Source: Escherichia phage 310Ecol104PP
Sequence record: OR062946.1
DNA length: 64,000 nucleotides
Strand: one strand, 5' to 3'
A model generated the notes under the pieces. That model was not told where the DNA came from and searched no databases. It saw nothing but the letters and a program-made list of their open reading frames with translations. Position 1 is the first letter of the stretch. Each line of letters begins with the position of its first letter. A program made the translations under genes and the position numbers. This document shows, piece after piece, positions 1,944 to 58,335 of the stretch.

Positions 1944-2108
1944 TTACTCTTCTTTTTCTTTAGATTCCTCTTTTTTCTTTTTAGGAATCTGCTCAGGACC
2001 TTTATTTACTACAGCGCCCGACGTTGTTCCAGTAGAGATATTTTCAGGATTACCACCTGAATCTCCAGCTACCATATCTTCTTTAATAAATTCTTTATAT
2101 GTTTTCAT
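1944..2108 (-). CDS. small protein (T4 61.1 position) with capsid-targeting-like N-terminus
   Basis: 54 aa own translation MKTYKEFIKEDMVAGDSGGNPENISTGTTSGAVVNKGPEQIPKKKKEESKEKEE; not in ORF track (<60 aa). Confidence 0.55.
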   Translation of the reverse strand: MKTYKEFIKEDMVAGDSGGNPENISTGTTSGAVVNKGPEQIPKKKKEESKEKEE

Positions 2109-6974: not shown

Positions 6975-7823
6975 TTAATCAACTGCTATTGGATGAATAG
7001 CATTAAACTTATGAAATGCTTCTGATTTTTCTTTACGTGAAACGCACATGCGAAGAACCTTTAATGGTTCGTCTTCTTCACCCAACGATTTTCGTTTTTC
7101 AATATTAGAAGTTTTCCAACGAGCTTGCTCTGGAAACTCTCTATTAATCTGCTCAAGCGCTCTATTATGTTTAGAATTACTACGAATTGAACTGCACCCG
7201 CCAGGAGCTTGTGCTTTTCCAGATACAACTAGATATTTGAACAAGGCCAAATGCGGATAACCTTGATTAATTAAATTGAGAAATGCATACATATCTTCGC
7301 ATAAATCAATTTTTCCATACCCAATTTGTTCTGTCGTAAGTTTTCCGAGGTCATACCATGTATTCGTGAATCCATATGAATTTTCACGATAATTACCCCA
7401 AGATGAAGTAATTTTAAAAATAGGTAGACGAGCATGGCCATGATAATACCCGCAATCCATGGCATCCTCAACATATTGAATCAATTCATAGAACTGTTCA
7501 CGAGTCAATTGATTGACTTTATCTACGCAACGACGATCATCTCTTTTTCGCATTGAACTCATACGAATAGTAGTATCATCGTCAATCATCCAGATTCGTT
7601 GACCTGCATACATATCGGTAATTGCTTTACGAGTACCGGCAATTCCGTTTACATCATCAGGAATAGTTATAATTTTAGCTCTAGACCCATAGGCATCATA
7701 ATAAGCTTTTTCTTCATGTTCACGCACTACAATATGGGGTTCATAATCAGTCGGAAACATATCAAGGGCAGAAACTGCCCCTACACGTTGATAGCTCGGA
7801 ATTACGAATTGAATCATTTCCAC
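6975..7823 (-). CDS. glycosyltransferase at the beta-gt locus (not T4 beta-gt; possibly beta-alpha-glucosyl-HMC transferase type)
   Basis: 282 aa; FVIPSYQR and IWMIDDD (DXD-like) motifs; does not match recalled T4 beta-gt (MKIAIINMGNN...). Confidence 0.6.
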   Translation of the reverse strand: MEMIQFVIPSYQRVGAVSALDMFPTDYEPHIVVREHEEKAYYDAYGSRAKIITIPDDVNGIAGTRKAITDMYAGQRIWMIDDDTTIRMSSMRKRDDRRCVDKVNQLTREQFYELIQYVEDAMDCGYYHGHARLPIFKITSSWGNYRENSYGFTNTWYDLGKLTTEQIGYGKIDLCEDMYAFLNLINQGYPHLALFKYLVVSGKAQAPGGCSSIRSNSKHNRALEQINREFPEQARWKTSNIEKRKSLGEEDEPLKVLRMCVSRKEKSEAFHKFNAIHPIAVD

Positions 7824-19899: not shown

Positions 19900-19929
19900 T
19901 CCGTATAAAGCTAAAGGGCCGAAGCCCTT
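19900..19929 (-). terminator. intrinsic terminator after alpha-gt
   Basis: AAGGGC-CGAA-GCCCTT hairpin. Confidence 0.5.
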
Positions 19930-21131
19930 TATTTTGTAATAATGTCAAACTGTTCTTTAAAGCAGAAGCTTGAATCTTGATGCTGATACAAAAATTCATA
20001 CGCTTTTTCTCGCTCACGGTCATAAAGAGCTCGGTCAGATGACAGTTCTTTAATACGTTCGAGTGTCGATTCCATGTCATTTTCATCAAACCAAATGATA
20101 CCGCTATCATGCGAGGTCAAAGGAGTATTATCAACACGGAATTTCAAATTATCACCCGTTGATTTCCAGAAAACAGGAATTGTACCACAAGCACCTAATT
20201 CAAGATGAGTATATTCGAGTGAGCGTTGTAAGTATTTCTGGTTAAGTTTACTCAACTGATATCCAAAGCCAGATTTACTCATTCGTTCAAGCATTTCACT
20301 ATTAATATAACAATCTAGGATTTGTGCCGGTTGATTCGGCGCGAGATTCATTTTATCAATCTCACGATTACCGTAATATTCATACGGAATACCTTTTTCC
20401 TTAATTGCAATAAAAGCAGGGGAACGTTCAAGACCTTCCATTACAGTGGATTTACCAGCAGGTTTTAAGAATTTTTCATGAAAATCAAACATCTGATAAA
20501 AACCTTTCCATGTAGTCGTACGACCAATCCAACGGTTGATATTCATGTTAATTTCAGAAACATCTTTCCAATAAGTTGACCGAACCTTCGCAATATCCAT
20601 AGGAGGCTGAAAGTTGTATACGGTCGGTGCTTCTTCAATATCATCAAACAGAGAAACAGTTTCTGGATACCACTCTTTCATCAGAACTTTATTAAAATCG
20701 CCATTATCAGAATGGCTAAAAATAACATCAGCTCGACGAACAGTTTCTTCTAATCCCGAATTTCGACGCAAAGAAAGAACAGAATGATCATGCTGATAAA
20801 CTACAACACGAATAGAAGGTTTAATATTATCTAAAAGTTTTTTATAGTTATTAATCGTAGCTTCTTGAACGGAAGTAGCAGGAACAGAATTAATAATTAG
20901 AATATCACAATCATTAATCAGTTTAAGTGCTTTATCGTATTCTTTAGCTAAAATAACTGGAATTGAAAATGATTTGTGGTCATGAGAACTTGTACGAGTA
21001 AATGATTTATCTTTAGCATAAACCAGAGTTACTTCATGACCATTTTTAATGAACCAATCACGTTGCTCAAGAGAAAATTTAGTTACGCCGCAACCTTCAA
21101 GACCTCGAGCCATAAAAATGCATACTTTCAT
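19929..21131 (-). CDS. a-gt: DNA alpha-glucosyltransferase
   Basis: 400 aa MKVCIFMARGLEGCGVTKFSLEQRDWFIKNGHEV; matches recalled T4 alpha-gt. Confidence 0.95.
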   Translation of the reverse strand: MKVCIFMARGLEGCGVTKFSLEQRDWFIKNGHEVTLVYAKDKSFTRTSSHDHKSFSIPVILAKEYDKALKLINDCDILIINSVPATSVQEATINNYKKLLDNIKPSIRVVVYQHDHSVLSLRRNSGLEETVRRADVIFSHSDNGDFNKVLMKEWYPETVSLFDDIEEAPTVYNFQPPMDIAKVRSTYWKDVSEINMNINRWIGRTTTWKGFYQMFDFHEKFLKPAGKSTVMEGLERSPAFIAIKEKGIPYEYYGNREIDKMNLAPNQPAQILDCYINSEMLERMSKSGFGYQLSKLNQKYLQRSLEYTHLELGACGTIPVFWKSTGDNLKFRVDNTPLTSHDSGIIWFDENDMESTLERIKELSSDRALYDREREKAYEFLYQHQDSSFCFKEQFDIITK

Positions 21132-46981: not shown

Positions 46982-47455
46982 TTATTTGAATGATTTGACG
47001 TACTGAATAGAACCTTTACTATTCACAAAGGCAATTTTACCATTTTTGTTATACATGGTAGCAGTACGTTGATAACCATAAGTTTGTTTACCAGATTGAT
47101 AACCAACTAATGCAAAATTATCTTCACCCATTTTATTCTGCTTAGCGCGAATGCGTTCATGGCCATGTGCCATAAGAACCTTAGCATCACCCGTTGCAAT
47201 GGATCTACGAGTTTTTTCATCTTCAACTGTATTAACAAAGTCGTCAAATGAATCAAATTTAGCATGAGATTTATTATACAGTTTTCCATCTACTGCATAA
47301 TTATATCCTTGTACATCCATCTCAACTTCTGTACCGTCATCCAATACAGCAGTGATTTTCTGTCCTTTTTTAAATTTCAAAAGATCAGTAAAAGATTCAG
47401 CAATAATTTGAGAATTAATAGCTGCTTCAGTAATAAATTCTTGATATGTTTTCAT
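46982..47455 (-). CDS. internal (capsid-injected) protein with capsid targeting sequence
   Basis: 157 aa; N-term MKTYQEFITEA matches T4 CTS consensus MKTYQEFIAEA. Confidence 0.65.
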   Translation of the reverse strand: MKTYQEFITEAAINSQIIAESFTDLLKFKKGQKITAVLDDGTEVEMDVQGYNYAVDGKLYNKSHAKFDSFDDFVNTVEDEKTRRSIATGDAKVLMAHGHERIRAKQNKMGEDNFALVGYQSGKQTYGYQRTATMYNKNGKIAFVNSKGSIQYVKSFK

Positions 47456-47471
47456 GTGTATCCTTTAATTT

Positions 47472-47789
47472 TTATTCTTTAGGGAAGTTTTTAGAATATG
47501 CATCATAAAGCTTATTTCCAATACGGCGGAAAACTCTAGCCGCAAAACGATTTTCTGGGTTTTTAATCATGATTTGCATCATATAAGTACCCGCGTCAGA
47601 AAGAGCTTCTTCATAGTACCCGTTAATTTCTTTAAGAGTCCTACGTTTACCACCAGGACCATCAACAGTGATTTTCCATTTACCTGTAGAAGTGCGACTT
47701 GGCGGCTCAACTTGTTCAATCCAGATATAACCACCTTCTACACGTTGTCCTGCAGCAGATTCTGCAATAAATTCTTTATACGTTTTCAT
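47472..47789 (-). CDS. internal (capsid-injected) protein with capsid targeting sequence
   Basis: 105 aa; N-term MKTYKEFIAES; basic. Confidence 0.65.
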   Translation of the reverse strand: MKTYKEFIAESAAGQRVEGGYIWIEQVEPPSRTSTGKWKITVDGPGGKRRTLKEINGYYEEALSDAGTYMMQIMIKNPENRFAARVFRRIGNKLYDAYSKNFPKE

Positions 47790-52793: not shown

Positions 52794-53267
52794 TTATTTG
52801 ATTTGTTTAGCAGACCAAATGCGGTCTTTAATAATCTTTTGGATGTCTTCAACATACTCTAGGTCATGAGCATGTGGATTATCTTTGAAACTATAGGCAC
52901 GGGCTAACTTTTGGCCTTCGGTTTTGATTACTAAAAGCTCTTTAAGGATAGCTTCATATTTAGCGATAATTCCTTTAACAATATTTTTTTCTTGTGCAGC
53001 TTTATGATCTGCTTTAGGAGCAGGTTTACCCGAAGCCTTTGCAAAAGCAGCGCCAGTAGCAACTAAACTTTTCCAGGCCATACTAACTGCATTTCCCGTA
53101 AATCCTTCTGCTTTCATGTCGCGAGCAAACTGGAATCGTGATTCGTCAGAAGCATCTTTATAGGAATATTTACCCGCTGCAATGGCTGCTTTTGCGACAG
53201 CTTGAATTTCGGTGCTAGATGCTTCATTTAACACCGCTTCATTTAAAAATTGAGCATATGATTTCAT
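52794..53267 (-). CDS. CTS-like N-terminus protein (candidate internal protein), 157 aa
   Basis: N-term MKSYAQFLNEA (CTS-like); Ala/Lys-rich; own late promoter and flanking terminators. Confidence 0.6.
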   Translation of the reverse strand: MKSYAQFLNEAVLNEASSTEIQAVAKAAIAAGKYSYKDASDESRFQFARDMKAEGFTGNAVSMAWKSLVATGAAFAKASGKPAPKADHKAAQEKNIVKGIIAKYEAILKELLVIKTEGQKLARAYSFKDNPHAHDLEYVEDIQKIIKDRIWSAKQIK

Positions 53268-53306: not shown

Positions 53307-53314
53307 TATTTATA
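53307..53314 (-). promoter_or_regulatory. T4 late promoter
   Basis: minus-strand TATAAATA about 40 nt upstream of ATG 53267. Confidence 0.55.
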
Positions 53315-54024: not shown

Positions 54025-54101
<77 letters not shown>

Positions 54102-54105
54102 TATT

Positions 54106-54180
54106 TGGCGGACGTGATAGGATTCGAACCTATAACCAATCGCTTAACAGGCGATCGCTCTGCCATTGAGCTACACATCC
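54106..54180 (-). tRNA. tRNA-Asn (anticodon GUU)
   Basis: manual fold: acceptor GGATGTG/CACGTCC, D-arm GCTC-AATGGCA-GAGC, anticodon loop CTGTTAA, T-loop TTCGAAT, CCA encoded. Confidence 0.8.
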
Positions 54181-54184
54181 AAAT

Positions 54185-54271
54185 TGGTGGGGAGTGATGG
54201 AGTCGAACCACCCGAGTCGCAATGACAATGGATTTACAGTCCACACCGCTACCTCTACGGGATAACTCCCC
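54185..54271 (-). tRNA. tRNA-Tyr-like (anticodon GUA), long variable arm
   Basis: perfect acceptor GGGGAGT/ACTCCCC, anticodon loop CTGTAAA, variable stem GTC/GAC, T-loop TTCGACT, CCA; D-arm irregular. Confidence 0.6.
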
Positions 54272-54280
54272 AAATTAATT

Positions 54281-54355
54281 TGGTGGCCCTGGGTGGAATT
54301 GAACCACCATCTGGCGATTATGAGTCGCTTGCTTGAACCTTCCAGCTACAGGGCC
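54281..54355 (-). tRNA. tRNA with CAU anticodon (Ile-lysidine or Met; T4 tRNA-Ile position)
   Basis: acceptor GGCCCTG/CAGGGCC, anticodon loop CTCATAA, T-loop TTCAATT, CCA; 1 nt after tRNA-Thr. Confidence 0.85.
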
Positions 54356-54356
54356 T

Positions 54357-54432
54357 TGGTGCTGATTGACGGAATCGAACCGCCGACCTTCTCATTACAA
54401 GTGAGTTGCTCTACCTACTGAGCTAAATCAGC
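54357..54432 (-). tRNA. tRNA-Thr (anticodon UGU)
   Basis: acceptor GCTGATT/AATCAGC, anticodon loop CTTGTAA, T-loop TTCGATT, CCA encoded. Confidence 0.9.
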
Positions 54433-54437
54433 AAAAC

Positions 54438-54527
54438 TGGCGGAGGCGATAGGATTTGAACCTATGAGTCGCCGGAGCGACTGCCGGTTTTCAAGACCGG
54501 TGCATTAAACCACTCTGCCACGCCTCC
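54438..54527 (-). tRNA. tRNA-Ser (anticodon UGA), long variable arm
   Basis: acceptor GGAGGCG/CGCCTCC, anticodon stem CCGGT/ACCGG loop CTTGAAA, T-loop TTCAAAT, CCA. Confidence 0.9.
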
Positions 54528-54529
54528 AG

Positions 54530-54603
54530 TCTCCATACAAGGATTTGAACCTTGGACCTCCTGATCCCAAATCAGGCGCTCTACCAAACTGAGCTACACG
54601 GAG
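54530..54603 (-). tRNA. tRNA-Pro (anticodon UGG), CCA not encoded
   Basis: anticodon loop TTTGGGA, T-loop TTCAAAT; 3' end abuts tRNA-Ser (dimeric precursor as in T4). Confidence 0.88.
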
Positions 54604-54613
54604 TAAATTAAAT

Positions 54614-54687
<74 letters not shown>

Positions 54688-54692
54688 AAATT

Positions 54693-54779
54693 TGGTGCGA
54701 GAAGTGGGACTCGAACCCACAAGGAAATCATTCCGCAGCATTTTAAGTGCTGTGCCTTTACCAATTTGACCATTCTCGC
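54693..54779 (-). tRNA. tRNA-Leu (anticodon UAA), long variable arm
   Basis: acceptor GCGAGAA/TTCTCGC, anticodon loop CTTAAAA, T-loop TTCGAGT, CCA. Confidence 0.9.
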
Positions 54780-54780
54780 G

Positions 54781-54853
54781 CTGGGAATAAAGGACTCGAA
54801 CCTTTGCATCCTGGAATCAAAATCCAGTGCCTTACCAACTTGGCTAATTCCCA
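54781..54853 (-). tRNA. tRNA-Gln (anticodon UUG), CCA not encoded
   Basis: 5' UGGGAAU, anticodon loop TTTTGAT, T-loop TTCGAGT; 3' end abuts tRNA-Leu (dimeric precursor). Confidence 0.9.
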
Positions 54854-54950: not shown

Positions 54951-55244
54951 TTACCATTTATGATGATACATACTTACGATGCATTCAAGACCCAAAGGAT
55001 TCTTGAAAATATCATATTCAAGAGGACCTTTTTCTGTTTCAATAAAGAAATCAAAATTTACTGTATTAAATTTACGGTCTTCCTTTACTAATTTAACTTG
55101 AGAAGATGAACGATCAATGTAAACCTTTTCAACTTCAAAACACGTTAAAATGCCATAATCATCGATCAAGGCTTTAGCTGCATCTTGATCATATTTATAT
55201 CCATTTTCAATGGATGATACTTTAGCATAAAGAATCATTATCAA
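54951..55244 (-). CDS. hypothetical protein, 97 aa
   Basis: ORF track. Confidence 0.5.
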   Translation of the reverse strand: MIMILYAKVSSIENGYKYDQDAAKALIDDYGILTCFEVEKVYIDRSSSQVKLVKEDRKFNTVNFDFFIETEKGPLEYDIFKNPLGLECIVSMYHHKW

Positions 55245-55651
55245 CCTCTATCAACAATAGCATGAGTATGGGCATTTACGATTTGCCACCAGTCGAAACG
55301 ATTGGAACCATAATCTGGTTTATTTTCATTTTCTTTAATGATATCACGCAGCTTATCTTCTGTTTCAGCATACGCAATTAAATCATCATACCCACCACAA
55401 GGATAATAATTATCACCTGCGAATAAAAGAAAATTTACCTTAGATGGATTTACGTAATAATGGTCTTTAGGATATTTAGTTCCTCTCCAATCAGTTACTT
55501 CAACATAACGGTAAGAAAATCCATTTTTACTTTCAATCCAACTCCACGCTTCAAAAGGAGTATTAAAAACTTTATCAGGTATTAAATTACCTTCAAAATG
55601 AGAAGGATTTGCATAATCCCCGGCATAAACATAATATTCGTTAATACTCAT
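55241..55651 (-). CDS. hypothetical protein, 136 aa
   Basis: ORF track. Confidence 0.5.
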   Translation of the reverse strand: MSINEYYVYAGDYANPSHFEGNLIPDKVFNTPFEAWSWIESKNGFSYRYVEVTDWRGTKYPKDHYYVNPSKVNFLLFAGDNYYPCGGYDDLIAYAETEDKLRDIIKENENKPDYGSNRFDWWQIVNAHTHAIVDRG

Positions 55652-55837
55652 TTATTCACCTTTAGAAATTTTATCCATAACGATAGCGATTAAACCAATT
55701 AAAAATGCTACTACAAGTGAAAACACATTTTCTGCTGTAGTTAATAATCCGCATATAAATCCAGCAAACATTGAAAAACTAAAAGCGGAAGCAGAAATTG
55801 CAATAGCAACATTTCGAATTAATTCACAGCGTTTCAT
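55652..55837 (-). CDS. small membrane protein, about 61 aa
   Basis: likely start ATG 55837 (MKRCELIRNVAIAISASAFSF); track start extends through promoter. Confidence 0.45.
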   Translation of the reverse strand: MKRCELIRNVAIAISASAFSFSMFAGFICGLLTTAENVFSLVVAFLIGLIAIVMDKISKGE

Positions 55838-55865
55838 TTTATTCTCCTCAGTAGTTGATAGTGTA

Positions 55866-55895
55866 ATAGTATCACAACTAAAACCGCATGTAAAC
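55866..55895 (-). promoter_or_regulatory. T4-type early promoter
   Basis: GTTTAC, 18 nt, TACTAT. Confidence 0.55.
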
Positions 55896-55898
55896 AAT

Positions 55899-56123
55899 TT
55901 ATTCAACACCAGCGGCTTTCAAAAGTTTCTTAAGATTGGCAACACCTTGAGCAGAAAATGTGACCTTTCCACCTTTTTCACTGATAGAACCAACCAATTT
56001 AGCAAGTTTATCATTAGGAATTTTTTTAAAATCAGCCAATGTTCCATCAAAGGTTTTTGAAACAAAAGGCAGTTCATCTTCATGTCTTTTAGCTTCTACA
56101 ATAAATTTTTGATATGTTTTCAT
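55899..56123 (-). CDS. internal protein (CTS-bearing), about 74 aa, ipI-locus member
   Basis: start ATG 56123; N-term MKTYQKFIVEA. Confidence 0.65.
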   Translation of the reverse strand: MKTYQKFIVEAKRHEDELPFVSKTFDGTLADFKKIPNDKLAKLVGSISEKGGKVTFSAQGVANLKKLLKAAGVE

Positions 56124-56150
56124 TTTAGTTTCCATTTAGATGTTTTGTTT

Positions 56151-56180
56151 TGATAGGGTAATAATATCACTACCCCATCT
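56151..56180 (-). promoter_or_regulatory. T4-type early promoter
   Basis: GTTTAC, 18 nt, TATTAT. Confidence 0.55.
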
Positions 56181-56200
56181 AAAAGTAAACAGTTTATAAA

Positions 56201-56509
56201 CTATTTTATTCCGCGTGATGCAATTGTGTTCTGCCGTTTAACGCCAGTTTGTTTAAAGTCATGATTGTCGATTTGATCGGTACGAGCAACTCCGAATGAT
56301 GATTTGATTTTAGCCTTAGATCCTTTAGTTATAGAAATAAACATCTCGGAAGCCCCTTTCTTAAAGTCCGAGGCGATTACTTCAACGCCGTTCTTAGCAA
56401 GTGACTTCAGAATTGCCTCTGCATACTCATCGTCAAGACTCGTCTGAGTATTAATAACGAATGTCTTTGGCGCAGCCGCTTCATTGATAAATTCTTTAAA
56501 TGTTTTCAT
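56201..56509 (-). CDS. internal protein (CTS-bearing), 102 aa, ipI-locus member
   Basis: N-term MKTFKEFINEA. Confidence 0.65.
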   Translation of the reverse strand: MKTFKEFINEAAAPKTFVINTQTSLDDEYAEAILKSLAKNGVEVIASDFKKGASEMFISITKGSKAKIKSSFGVARTDQIDNHDFKQTGVKRQNTIASRGIK

Positions 56510-56539
56510 TTTATTTTCCTAATTAATTTTGATGAGATA

Positions 56540-56569
56540 ATAGTACCACAACCCTATTTAAAAGTAAAC
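56540..56569 (-). promoter_or_regulatory. T4-type early promoter
   Basis: GTTTAC, 18 nt, TACTAT. Confidence 0.55.
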
Positions 56570-56842
56570 TCATTTTAAATAAATTGCGTATTTTTTATAA
56601 CCCGCTGACTCATGACGAAGACCCTTATCATTAGCAAAACGCTCAATGTTGTTAATTTGATTCTGGTCAAGTTCAGAGATGTCAAACACGAAAAAGTTAC
56701 GTTTGTTACCAACTGTTACATAGTCAGTTAAATCAATATCATATAGGTAATTGATGTCAGCAATCAAAGTCTTGACAGCTTTGCTAATTTTTACTTTTTC
56801 GTTAAAAGCAGCTTCAGCAATAAATTCTTGATACGTTTTCAT
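56570..56842 (-). CDS. internal protein (CTS-bearing), 90 aa, ipI-locus member
   Basis: N-term MKTYQEFIAEA (exact T4 CTS consensus). Confidence 0.7.
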   Translation of the reverse strand: MKTYQEFIAEAAFNEKVKISKAVKTLIADINYLYDIDLTDYVTVGNKRNFFVFDISELDQNQINNIERFANDKGLRHESAGYKKYAIYLK

Positions 56843-56865
56843 TTTATTCTCCTCAGTAGTTGATA

Positions 56866-56895
56866 GTGTAATAGTATCACTACCTCATCAGCATG
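56866..56895 (-). promoter_or_regulatory. T4-type early promoter
   Basis: GTTTAC, 18 nt, TACTAT; near-identical to 55866..55895. Confidence 0.55.
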
Positions 56896-56912
56896 TAAAC
56901 AACTTTGTGAAA

Positions 56913-57609
<697 letters not shown>

Positions 57610-57610
<1 letters not shown>

Positions 57611-58335
57611 TATAGTACCTTTAGTGTATTTTTAATTTTAGAAAAAAGTTCTTCAAGAGAACCATCGTTTGTAATTACTAAATCGCCATCACGAATTGGC
57701 AATCCAGCTTCTGTAATATGAGTATCATTGGATTTTTGACCAGGACGAACTACATGAATTACTGTAGCACCCATCGCCCTAGCCGCATCCATTTCATGAT
57801 CTTGACGAGTATCAGGAACGATATAATAATCATAACCTGAGTTAAATTTATCAAGATAATCTAAAGCAAATAATTTTACCCAGTACATGCGATCGAAGTT
57901 ATTAACAATCAAATCCGTACCTAGGGCTTGCATCAGACGACGGACTGACCATTGATCTTCAATATTATTTATAACGTCAATAATCTTGTTAAATGCTACG
58001 GAATTAACTGATTCTTGTCCTTCGTCATCAAAAACAAACACGCCTTTAATTGGGCTTTTACTATTAAGATAGCAAAATGCTTGTTCCATAATCGTGATTA
58101 CTTCTAATTTAGTCAGATTCAAATTAGTCTCACGATCATAGTCAATTCCTTCAAACTCTTTACGAGTTAAGCAAGAATAGTCAGTGTTTGCTGCGAATAC
58201 GCCCCATGCATAAGCCAATGCATCTTTAATAGGACCAGCAAGTTGATATTTAACTGCAGAATAATTATTCATGATAAAATCTGCGGTAGTATCTTTTCCA
58301 CTACGCTTTACACCACTTAAAAAGATTAGTTTCAT
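57610..58335 (-). CDS. 1: deoxynucleoside monophosphate kinase gp1
   Basis: 241 aa MKLIFLSGVKRSGKDTTADFIMNNYSAVKYQLAGPIKDALAYAWGVF; matches recalled T4 gp1. Confidence 0.95.

Follow-up and report, generated by a model that had tools for sequence, protein, structure and literature searches.

The three consecutive small genes at positions 55899-56842 of the 64,000-nucleotide (nt) stretch of Escherichia phage 310Ecol104PP DNA analysed here (sequence record OR062946.1; hereafter the window) are almost certainly ip8, ip7 and ip9, T-even internal-protein genes lying at the polymorphic ipI locus, and their products are probably packaged in the phage head, processed, and injected to act on the host. 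The window is a segment of a Tequatrovirus (T4-like) genome, ~97% identical over its final 24 kb to several sequenced coliphages. Its list of open reading frames (ORFs) contained exactly three in succession, all on the minus strand, between trna.4 and 57B, and confirmed the coordinates and the sizes of 74, 102 and 90 amino acids (aa) previously assigned to them by a first-pass annotation made from the sequence alone:

56913-57368, minus strand: 57B, full-length Acb1 phosphodiesterase directed against the cyclic-oligonucleotide-based anti-phage signalling system (CBASS) (Pfam Acb1, 2.6e-60); conserved boundary on the upstream side, at the same position in T4
56570-56842, minus strand: ip9 coding sequence, 90 aa
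56201-56509, minus strand: ip7 coding sequence, 102 aa
55899-56123, minus strand: ip8 coding sequence, 74 aa when begun at MKTYQ, as in the RB15 annotation
55652-55837, minus strand: trna.4, 61-aa membrane protein (PHROG 1692, 5e-35); boundary of the locus, downstream side in the direction of transcription

An alternative ATG for ip8 at 56135 extends that ORF to 55899-56135 (78 aa), adding METK.

Full-length comparisons with the equivalent proteins of phage RB15 established the identity of each product: Ip8 was identical at all 74 residues (CAA84465), Ip7 at 101 of 102 (CAA84464; 99%) and Ip9 at 86 of 90 (CAA84463; 95.6%). Corresponding family assignments were PHROG 8765, 'internal virion protein', for Ip8 (3e-25), and two families of internal head/virion proteins, PHROG 2667 for Ip7 (5e-41) and PHROG 7673 for Ip9 (4e-55), while a six-frame protein search of a phage collection detected ip8, ip7 and ip9 in 107, 283 and 199 records, respectively. 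The possibility of chance ORFs was excluded by the identity to named genes together with the hundreds of conserved homologs. The genes are thus already known: reportedly named in RB15 in 1994 by Repoila and co-workers, they are annotated in many genomes and formed part of a functional screen published in 2025. The names ip8, ip7 and ip9 were overlooked by the first-pass annotation, and the finding itself is textbook T-even biology.

The flanking genes are those of the T4 locus, where, as previously claimed, the single gene ipI occupies this position, and trna.4 served as a conserved boundary at the same position in T4, RB32 and vB_EcoM_G4498. The location consequently corresponds to the trna.4-57B member of the pair of polymorphic internal-protein loci (the second being denV-e), and the earlier description of internal-protein genes at a hypervariable ipI locus was borne out by both the RB15 identities and the T4 position. 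A more specific placement between the tRNA array and 57B held on the 57B side, beyond which the minus-strand order continues with 57A, gene 1 and gene 3; on the opposite side, trna.4 and two further genes separate the ip genes from the tRNA array (54025-54853):

55241-55651, minus strand: trna.3
54951-55244, minus strand: trna.2

In RefSeq, 57B of T4 and its relatives is still labelled 'RNA ligase'.

A megablast search conducted with the locus matched 636 phage records, of which only 13 covered at least 80% of its length, the best being Escherichia phage vB_EcoM_G4498 (98% DNA identity), whose annotation lists the products of the same three genes as internal head/virion proteins. An identical three-gene layout was recorded in G4498, VEc74, UFV-AREG1 and others at 91-98% DNA identity across the locus, with only point differences from the window, for example an Ip8 of G4498 that starts METYQ. 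The majority of the remaining matching records (e.g. RB32, RB33) instead carry ip7-ip9-ip5 without ip8. RB15 also carries ip8, ip7 and ip9 between trna.4 and 57B, arranged and oriented as in the window and with homologous promoter cassettes, but differs in possessing ip5.

Evidence for packaging comes from the first ten codons of each gene, which encode a capsid targeting sequence:

56813-56842, minus strand: ip9 codons 1-10, capsid targeting sequence MKTYQEFIAE
56480-56509, minus strand: ip7 codons 1-10, capsid targeting sequence MKTFKEFINE
56094-56123, minus strand: ip8 codons 1-10, capsid targeting sequence MKTYQKFIVE, with a predicted cut by the prohead protease gp21 after E10

Extended to residue 11, the N-termini read MKTYQKFIVEA (Ip8), MKTFKEFINEA (Ip7) and MKTYQEFIAEA (Ip9), confirming the pattern MKT(Y/F)(Q/K)(E/K)FIxEA previously noted on all three proteins and identifying it as the capsid targeting sequence of T4, closed by a gp21 cleavage motif. 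Because the motif MK[TS][YF]..F[ILV].E opened seven of the 655 methionine-started frames of at least 40 aa in the window, as against 0.0004 expected from composition (an excess of ~10^4-fold), its occurrence was far beyond chance. Studies of T4 IPIII have established that its first ten residues suffice for packaging, that targeting requires residues 4 and 7 and processing requires residues 8 and 10, that gp21 cuts after L/I-x-E, and that both the T4 internal proteins and targeting-sequence fusions are ejected into the host with the DNA (PMC9026906). These determinants are present in each of the window proteins (Y/F4, F7, I8 and E10, with A11 next), and the gp21 motif predicted from the sequence at residues 8-11 is IVE/A in Ip8, INE/A in Ip7 and IAE/A in Ip9 (slash, cleavage site).

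That the proteins might instead be unpackaged early cytoplasmic accessory proteins, in which the leader persists only as part of the homologous segment that moves the cassettes, was considered very improbable. The repeat family D1, which includes the promoter cassette, does reach into the first ~30 coding nt, the promoters are of early type with no late promoter adjacent, and the Ip9 body is found leaderless in other phages, all of which would be accommodated by such an explanation. Against it, an alignment of 37 homologs of the three families demonstrated that positions 1, 2, 7, 8 and 10 were invariant and position 4 always Y or F, whereas the dispensable positions 5 and 9 varied, the pattern predicted for selection acting on the function of the peptide rather than on the DNA, and one that argues against a passive recombination passenger. 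Furthermore, relatives of Ip9 with only ~40% body identity retain a leader of the same pattern (MKSFKEYLTES, MKTFQEFLNEA), and the 10-residue T4 leader is by itself sufficient to package foreign proteins (PMC3012670, PMC9026906). Packaging and injection of Ip7, Ip8 and Ip9 are judged very likely.

Cleavage at the predicted site would yield Ip8* (64 aa; isoelectric point (pI) 9.6), Ip7* (92 aa; pI 9.65) and Ip9* (80 aa; pI 8.2), with predicted new N-termini at A11 of AKRHEDELPF, AAAPKTFVINTQ and AAFNEKVK, respectively, each a small basic protein comparable to the mature T4 product IPI* (76 aa; pI 9.0). T4 IPI and the window proteins also have in common their locus, their cassette type and an N-terminal targeting sequence with a gp21 site at its end, but the IPI leader has 19 residues as opposed to ten, and the bodies lack detectable similarity. 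In T4 IPII and IPIII the leader is of the same 10-residue style (MKTYQEFIAE/A); these two proteins are, by way of contrast, encoded at the second locus, denV-e, and have unrelated bodies.

Each gene was found to be preceded by a regulatory cassette of its own, and the ip8-ip7-ip9 block as a whole to be bracketed by a 69-nt direct repeat:

56843-56912, minus strand: ip9 regulatory cassette; -35 GTTTACA, 17-nt spacer, TG-extended -10 TACTAT (56899-56871), Shine-Dalgarno (SD) sequence GAGGAG (56854-56849)
56510-56569, minus strand: ip7 regulatory cassette; GTTTACT-N17-TACTAT (56568-56540), SD AGGA (56520-56517); begins immediately past the ip9 stop codon
56124-56200, minus strand: ip8 regulatory cassette; TTTACT-N17-TATTAT (56189-56161), stable stem-loop over the -10
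56837-56905, no strand assigned: right copy of the 69-nt direct repeat, comprising the ip9 promoter/SD cassette
55832-55900, no strand assigned: left copy of the 69-nt direct repeat (repeat family D3), comprising the trna.4 promoter/SD cassette

A consensus scan detected sigma70-like sites with a TG-extended -10 for ip9, ip8 and trna.4, while the ip7 site, matching at 8 of 12 positions and so below the threshold of the scan, was recognised from its column-for-column alignment with the other cassettes and with the T4 ipI upstream region; the early promoter previously attributed to each gene was thereby substantiated. When the ip8, ip7, ip9 and trna.4 cassettes of the window were aligned with two from T4 (ipI and trna.4) and with those of the four ip genes of RB15, 34 columns were invariant, including GTTTAC at the -35 and GTG(A/G)TA(C/T)TATTA over the TG-extended -10, and the arrangement GTTTAC-N17-TG-n-TAxTAT was retained ahead of each ip gene of the window, RB15 and T4. 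The companion claim that each gene has its own SD sequence was sustained for ip9 (good, GAGGAG) and ip7 (fair, AGGA) but less so for ip8, where only a weak GGA overlapping the alternative ATG is present. The elements of an early promoter, stem-loop and SD cassette were thus recorded for all three genes, with a significantly stable stem only upstream of ip8 (-19.4 kcal/mol; z = -4.4).

The promoter/stem-loop (PeSL) cassettes of RB49 and phi1 are similarly repeated intergenic modules of promoter, stem-loop and SD sequence that border variable small genes and serve for recombination (PMC2839356); the elements of the internal-protein loci are regarded as analogs rather than homologs of these, having T4 early promoters and weaker AT-rich stems (Arbiol et al. 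2010, PMC2839356), and in the window, unlike in the PeSL modules, a significantly stable stem is confined to the ip8 cassette.

The two copies of the 69-nt repeat are 90% identical and spaced 1005 nt apart, and an analogous flanking repeat of 43 bp is annotated in RB32. To the left of its -10 block, the ip9 cassette was identical at 31 of 32 positions to the RB15 ip5 and T4 ipI cassettes, while to the right it matched the RB15 ip9 cassette at 27 of 29 positions and the window's own trna.4 cassette at all 29. As judged from these identities, the ip9 cassette is a chimera, ipI/ip5-type on the left and ip9/trna.4-type on the right, with the putative crossover in the 12-bp -10 block; with respect to RB15, it is a hybrid of the ip5 and ip9 cassettes. 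This left/right split is the expected footprint of ip5 loss by homologous recombination within the -10 block, and is consistent with ip5 having been lost in this way from an RB15-like arrangement. Recognition of the footprint is a small addition made by the present analysis; it fits both the hypervariability and promoter-cassette shuffling of the locus credited to Repoila et al. 1994, and the generalisation of such shuffling as PeSL by Arbiol et al. 2010 (PMC2839356).

Beyond their leaders, the three proteins proved to be mutually unrelated, as previously asserted. Pairwise BLASTP comparison of the bodies (residues 13 to end) returned nothing better than E>2, and alignment of profiles with hhalign confined the Ip7/Ip9 and Ip7/Ip8 matches to the targeting sequence; only the Ip9/Ip8 match continued past it, in a low-confidence stretch of 37 columns. 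The proposed BLASTP comparison with T4 IPI and known Ip variants confirmed bodies unlike that of IPI, each protein matching its own RB15 counterpart, and no similarity of the leaderless bodies to RB15 Ip5 was detected by BLASTP. No Pfam family was assigned to any of the three (best E>0.02, under the curated cut-offs), a sequence search of the PDB returned nothing below E=0.02, and PADLOC gave no meaningful match for Ip7, Ip8 or Ip9. The single significant match in BFVD was a 535-aa viral protein, 34% identical, which is a homolog rather than an annotation. A collection of 5.8 billion proteins yielded 14-17 clusters per family, all from T4-like phages and at least 66% identical.

AlphaFold2 (AF2) modelling gave Ip7* (predicted local distance difference test (pLDDT) score 79) a beta-alpha-beta-beta-alpha-beta core followed by a disordered basic C-terminal tail, and Ip9* (pLDDT 83.5) an alpha-beta-beta-alpha-beta-beta fold; as modelled, both appear to be generic small alpha/beta folds that offer no functional lead. 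A fold common to Ip7 and Ip9 was considered and rejected, since these two-layer alpha/beta models have their structural elements in different orders, and beyond the leader the two profiles do not align. Residues 81-102 of Ip7 (56204-56269, minus strand) were modelled with a pLDDT of about 50, yet are almost invariant in homologs down to 66% identity, a combination that would fit a linear binding motif in these C-terminal ~22 residues. A 77-aa protein of Escherichia phage OLB35 annotated as 'ip7' consists of mid-Ip7 joined to the last 33 residues of Ip9, and is probably the product of recombination or deletion at this locus.

Taken in sequence, these features point to the following putative mechanism. 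Each ip gene would be transcribed from its own copy of the conserved T4-type early-promoter/SD cassette, and the 10-residue N-terminal targeting sequence would bring the protein into the scaffolding core of the prohead, where gp21 would cut after I-x-E10 to leave the small basic Ip8*, Ip7* and Ip9*. The mature proteins would remain in the head with the DNA, be ejected into the host together with it and, by virtue of arriving ready-made, be able to counter a host defence already at work ahead of phage gene expression; if T4 Ip1, Ip2 and Ip3 are a guide, that defence would most likely be a modification-dependent nuclease, each unrelated body being specific for a different target. The repeated cassettes and shared leader codons would in turn provide the recombination sites by which ip genes may be added, removed and shuffled between phages. 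To our knowledge, no T-even counter-defence other than the internal proteins reaches the cell preformed along with the DNA.

A number of observations weigh against this reading. With respect to supply, no late promoter (TATAAATA) is present in 55899-56912, which rules out a late promoter there driving the three genes; the nearest on the same strand lies at 57966-57973, inside gene 1, with no terminator-like site between it and the ip genes, and provision of the proteins at head assembly would therefore depend on read-through or on protein made earlier. The genes for gp21 and gp22 lie outside the window. A literature search on the names Ip7, Ip8 and Ip9 returned only unrelated uses of the strings, and the papers searched yielded no virion proteomics or injection data for the three proteins. 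The leaderless bodies gave no BLASTP match to T4 IPI, IPII or IPIII (E>0.6 for all pairs). When the ip4-10 genes of T4-like phages were screened against 15 synthesized GmrSD groups, no reproducible inhibition was recorded (Silas et al. 2025, PMC12373910), the apparent effects of ip7 on CLS_011 and of ip8 on CLS_018-019 being likewise not reproducible (PMC12373910). Finally, the leaderless relatives of the Ip9 body described below indicate a domain activity that does not require injection and may not concern DNA containing glucosylated hydroxymethylcytosine (glucosyl-hmC).

With regard to function, an anti-restriction role is the default idea in the field (PMC3012670, PMC12373910), T4 Ip1, Ip2 and Ip3 each inhibiting one distinct type IV restriction system of the GmrSD type without cross-protection (PMC12373910). 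The target of IPI is the GmrSD of E. coli CT596, while IPII and IPIII inhibit the ECOR21 and ECOR17 GmrSD systems, each being specific for one variant (Silas et al. 2025, PMC12373910); ip7, ip8 and ip9, in contrast, exhibited no reproducible inhibition of any GmrSD tested (PMC12373910). The screen of ip4-10 is the sole experiment on record that bears on the anti-restriction part, and its outcome was negative. Of the earlier proposal that the three genes encode injected anti-restriction effectors, the internal-protein status was thus upheld, while the anti-restriction part is a conjecture on which the published 15-group test was negative; GmrSD diversity extends far beyond the groups tested (PMC12373910).

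Modification of the phage DNA is relevant in this context. The window encodes an alpha-glucosyltransferase (19929-21131; Pfam AGT, 5e-257), a gp42-like hydroxymethylase and a second glycosyltransferase:

6975-7823, minus strand: TAGT-family glycosyltransferase, 282 aa, next to gene 42

Judged from this gene content, the DNA probably contains glucosyl-hmC, so that modification-dependent enzymes of the GmrSD type would be relevant threats. The TAGT-family gene stands where T4 carries its beta-glucosyltransferase gene, and its presence, along with the alpha-glucosyltransferase, suggests an hmC sugar pattern that may be T2/T6-like rather than T4-like. On balance, some anti-defence role for Ip7, Ip8 and Ip9 appears reasonably probable, while a type IV restriction target specifically is a doubtful proposition.

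A different explanation for packaged proteins of this kind is that they serve the particle, neutralising DNA charge as small basic proteins or aiding assembly of the core and head, and have no specific host target. Predicted mature pI values of 8.2-9.7 are in keeping with this, as are the presence of ~300 copies of each T4 internal protein, their binding of DNA at low salt and the halving of the head assembly rate upon loss of IPIII (PMC9026906), and the failure to find a GmrSD target for ip4-10 (PMC12373910). A generic counter-ion nevertheless does not explain why close relatives exchange folded bodies of unrelated kinds at this locus, nor the strong conservation of the body within each family, including the disordered but invariant Ip7 tail, and all three T4 internal proteins proved to have specific targets (PMC12373910). 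A purely particle-serving role was consequently rated as improbable, and effectors acting on the host are preferred.

Effectors of that kind may nonetheless be directed at something other than modification-dependent restriction, and the distribution of the Ip9 body bears directly on the question:

56573-56812, minus strand: Ip9 body, with relatives outside T4-like phages

Using tBLASTn, a free-standing 81-aa ORF (L006:2480-2725), 47% identical and without a T4-type leader, was found in Klebsiella phage vB_kpnM_D1, a siphovirus of the Guernseyvirinae, and a 36%-identical segment was found to constitute the final ~75 aa of a 755-aa hypothetical protein (L005:467-2734) of Kuttervirus maane, a relationship also evident from a PHROG match to the segment (2.4e-08); Kuttervirus proteins with such an Ip9-like C-terminal part ranged from 755 to 861 aa. 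An exhaustive profile search of 1.84 billion representatives with Ip9 recovered 14 clusters, all unannotated, some of which have diverged leaders (MKSFKEYLTES, MKTFQEFLNEA, MKFNEFLTEA) while others are leaderless. On this sequence evidence Ip9 looks like a circulating small phage domain that may have acquired the T4 packaging leader, or elsewhere lost it. Its occurrence as a leaderless early gene in Guernseyvirinae and as a C-terminal part in Kuttervirus suggests that its target is shared among enterobacteria and independent of glucosyl-hmC DNA; that the target is not specific to such DNA is weakly suggested by the sequence relationships themselves. These relatives outside T4-like phages take the description of Ip9 slightly beyond the literature located.

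Injected effectors with another target, whether a different immediate-early defence or host takeover in the manner of the packaged protein Alt, would accord with the negative GmrSD screen (PMC12373910), with Ip9-body homologs in siphoviruses of the Guernseyvirinae and in Kuttervirus, which are not glucosyl-hmC phages, and with the location of the genes next to the anti-defence gene 57B/Acb1; Alt itself is a packaged enzyme, not an anti-restriction protein (PMC9026906). Set against this, every member of the class characterised so far, three in all, is an inhibitor of a GmrSD-type enzyme, the diversity of GmrSD is far greater than the 15 groups tested (PMC12373910), and the Pfam, PDB and PADLOC searches brought up no known anti-defence protein or enzyme resembling the bodies. 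Targets of this other kind were viewed as rather unlikely. The narrower proposal that one or more of Ip7, Ip8 and Ip9 would be packaged, injected and then inhibit a defence system other than GmrSD-type restriction is similarly tentative and on the unlikely side, with Ip9 as the best candidate. Ip7, Ip8 and Ip9 are common alleles (283, 107 and 199 records for Ip7, Ip8 and Ip9, respectively) and useful probes for the host defences that limit T-even host range, defences which bear on the choice of therapeutic phages.

Other genes with similar leaders were recorded elsewhere in the window. At the second internal-protein locus, just downstream of the lysozyme gene e, two leader-bearing genes of 105 aa (47472-47789, minus strand) and 157 aa (46982-47455, minus strand) have bodies unrelated to T4 IPII and IPIII; with unrelated bodies at both internal-protein loci, the phage is without all three characterised GmrSD inhibitors. 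Outside both loci, a 157-aa ORF (52794-53267, minus strand) starts with the leader-like MKSYAQFLNE/A, inclusive of a gp21 motif, and has the late-promoter consensus TATAAATA ~40 nt upstream (53307-53314, minus strand). It belongs to PHROG 2280 (unknown function), is a 'hypothetical protein' in 511 phage records, and is a possible unrecognised head internal protein on the basis of these sequence features. A perfect leader, MKTYKEFIKE/D, also opens a 54-aa ORF just upstream of the primase gene 61 (1944-2108, minus strand), the homolog of T4 gene 61.1, which is conserved in about 1,400 phage records; its predicted mature part is acidic (pI 5.0), unlike the known internal proteins.

The tRNA array (54025-54853, minus strand) likewise departs from that of T4: in T4 the homing endonuclease gene segB interrupts a set of eight tRNA genes, whereas the window array lacks segB and its ten tRNA genes, including those for Asn, Tyr and a Met-anticodon tRNA, run uninterrupted.

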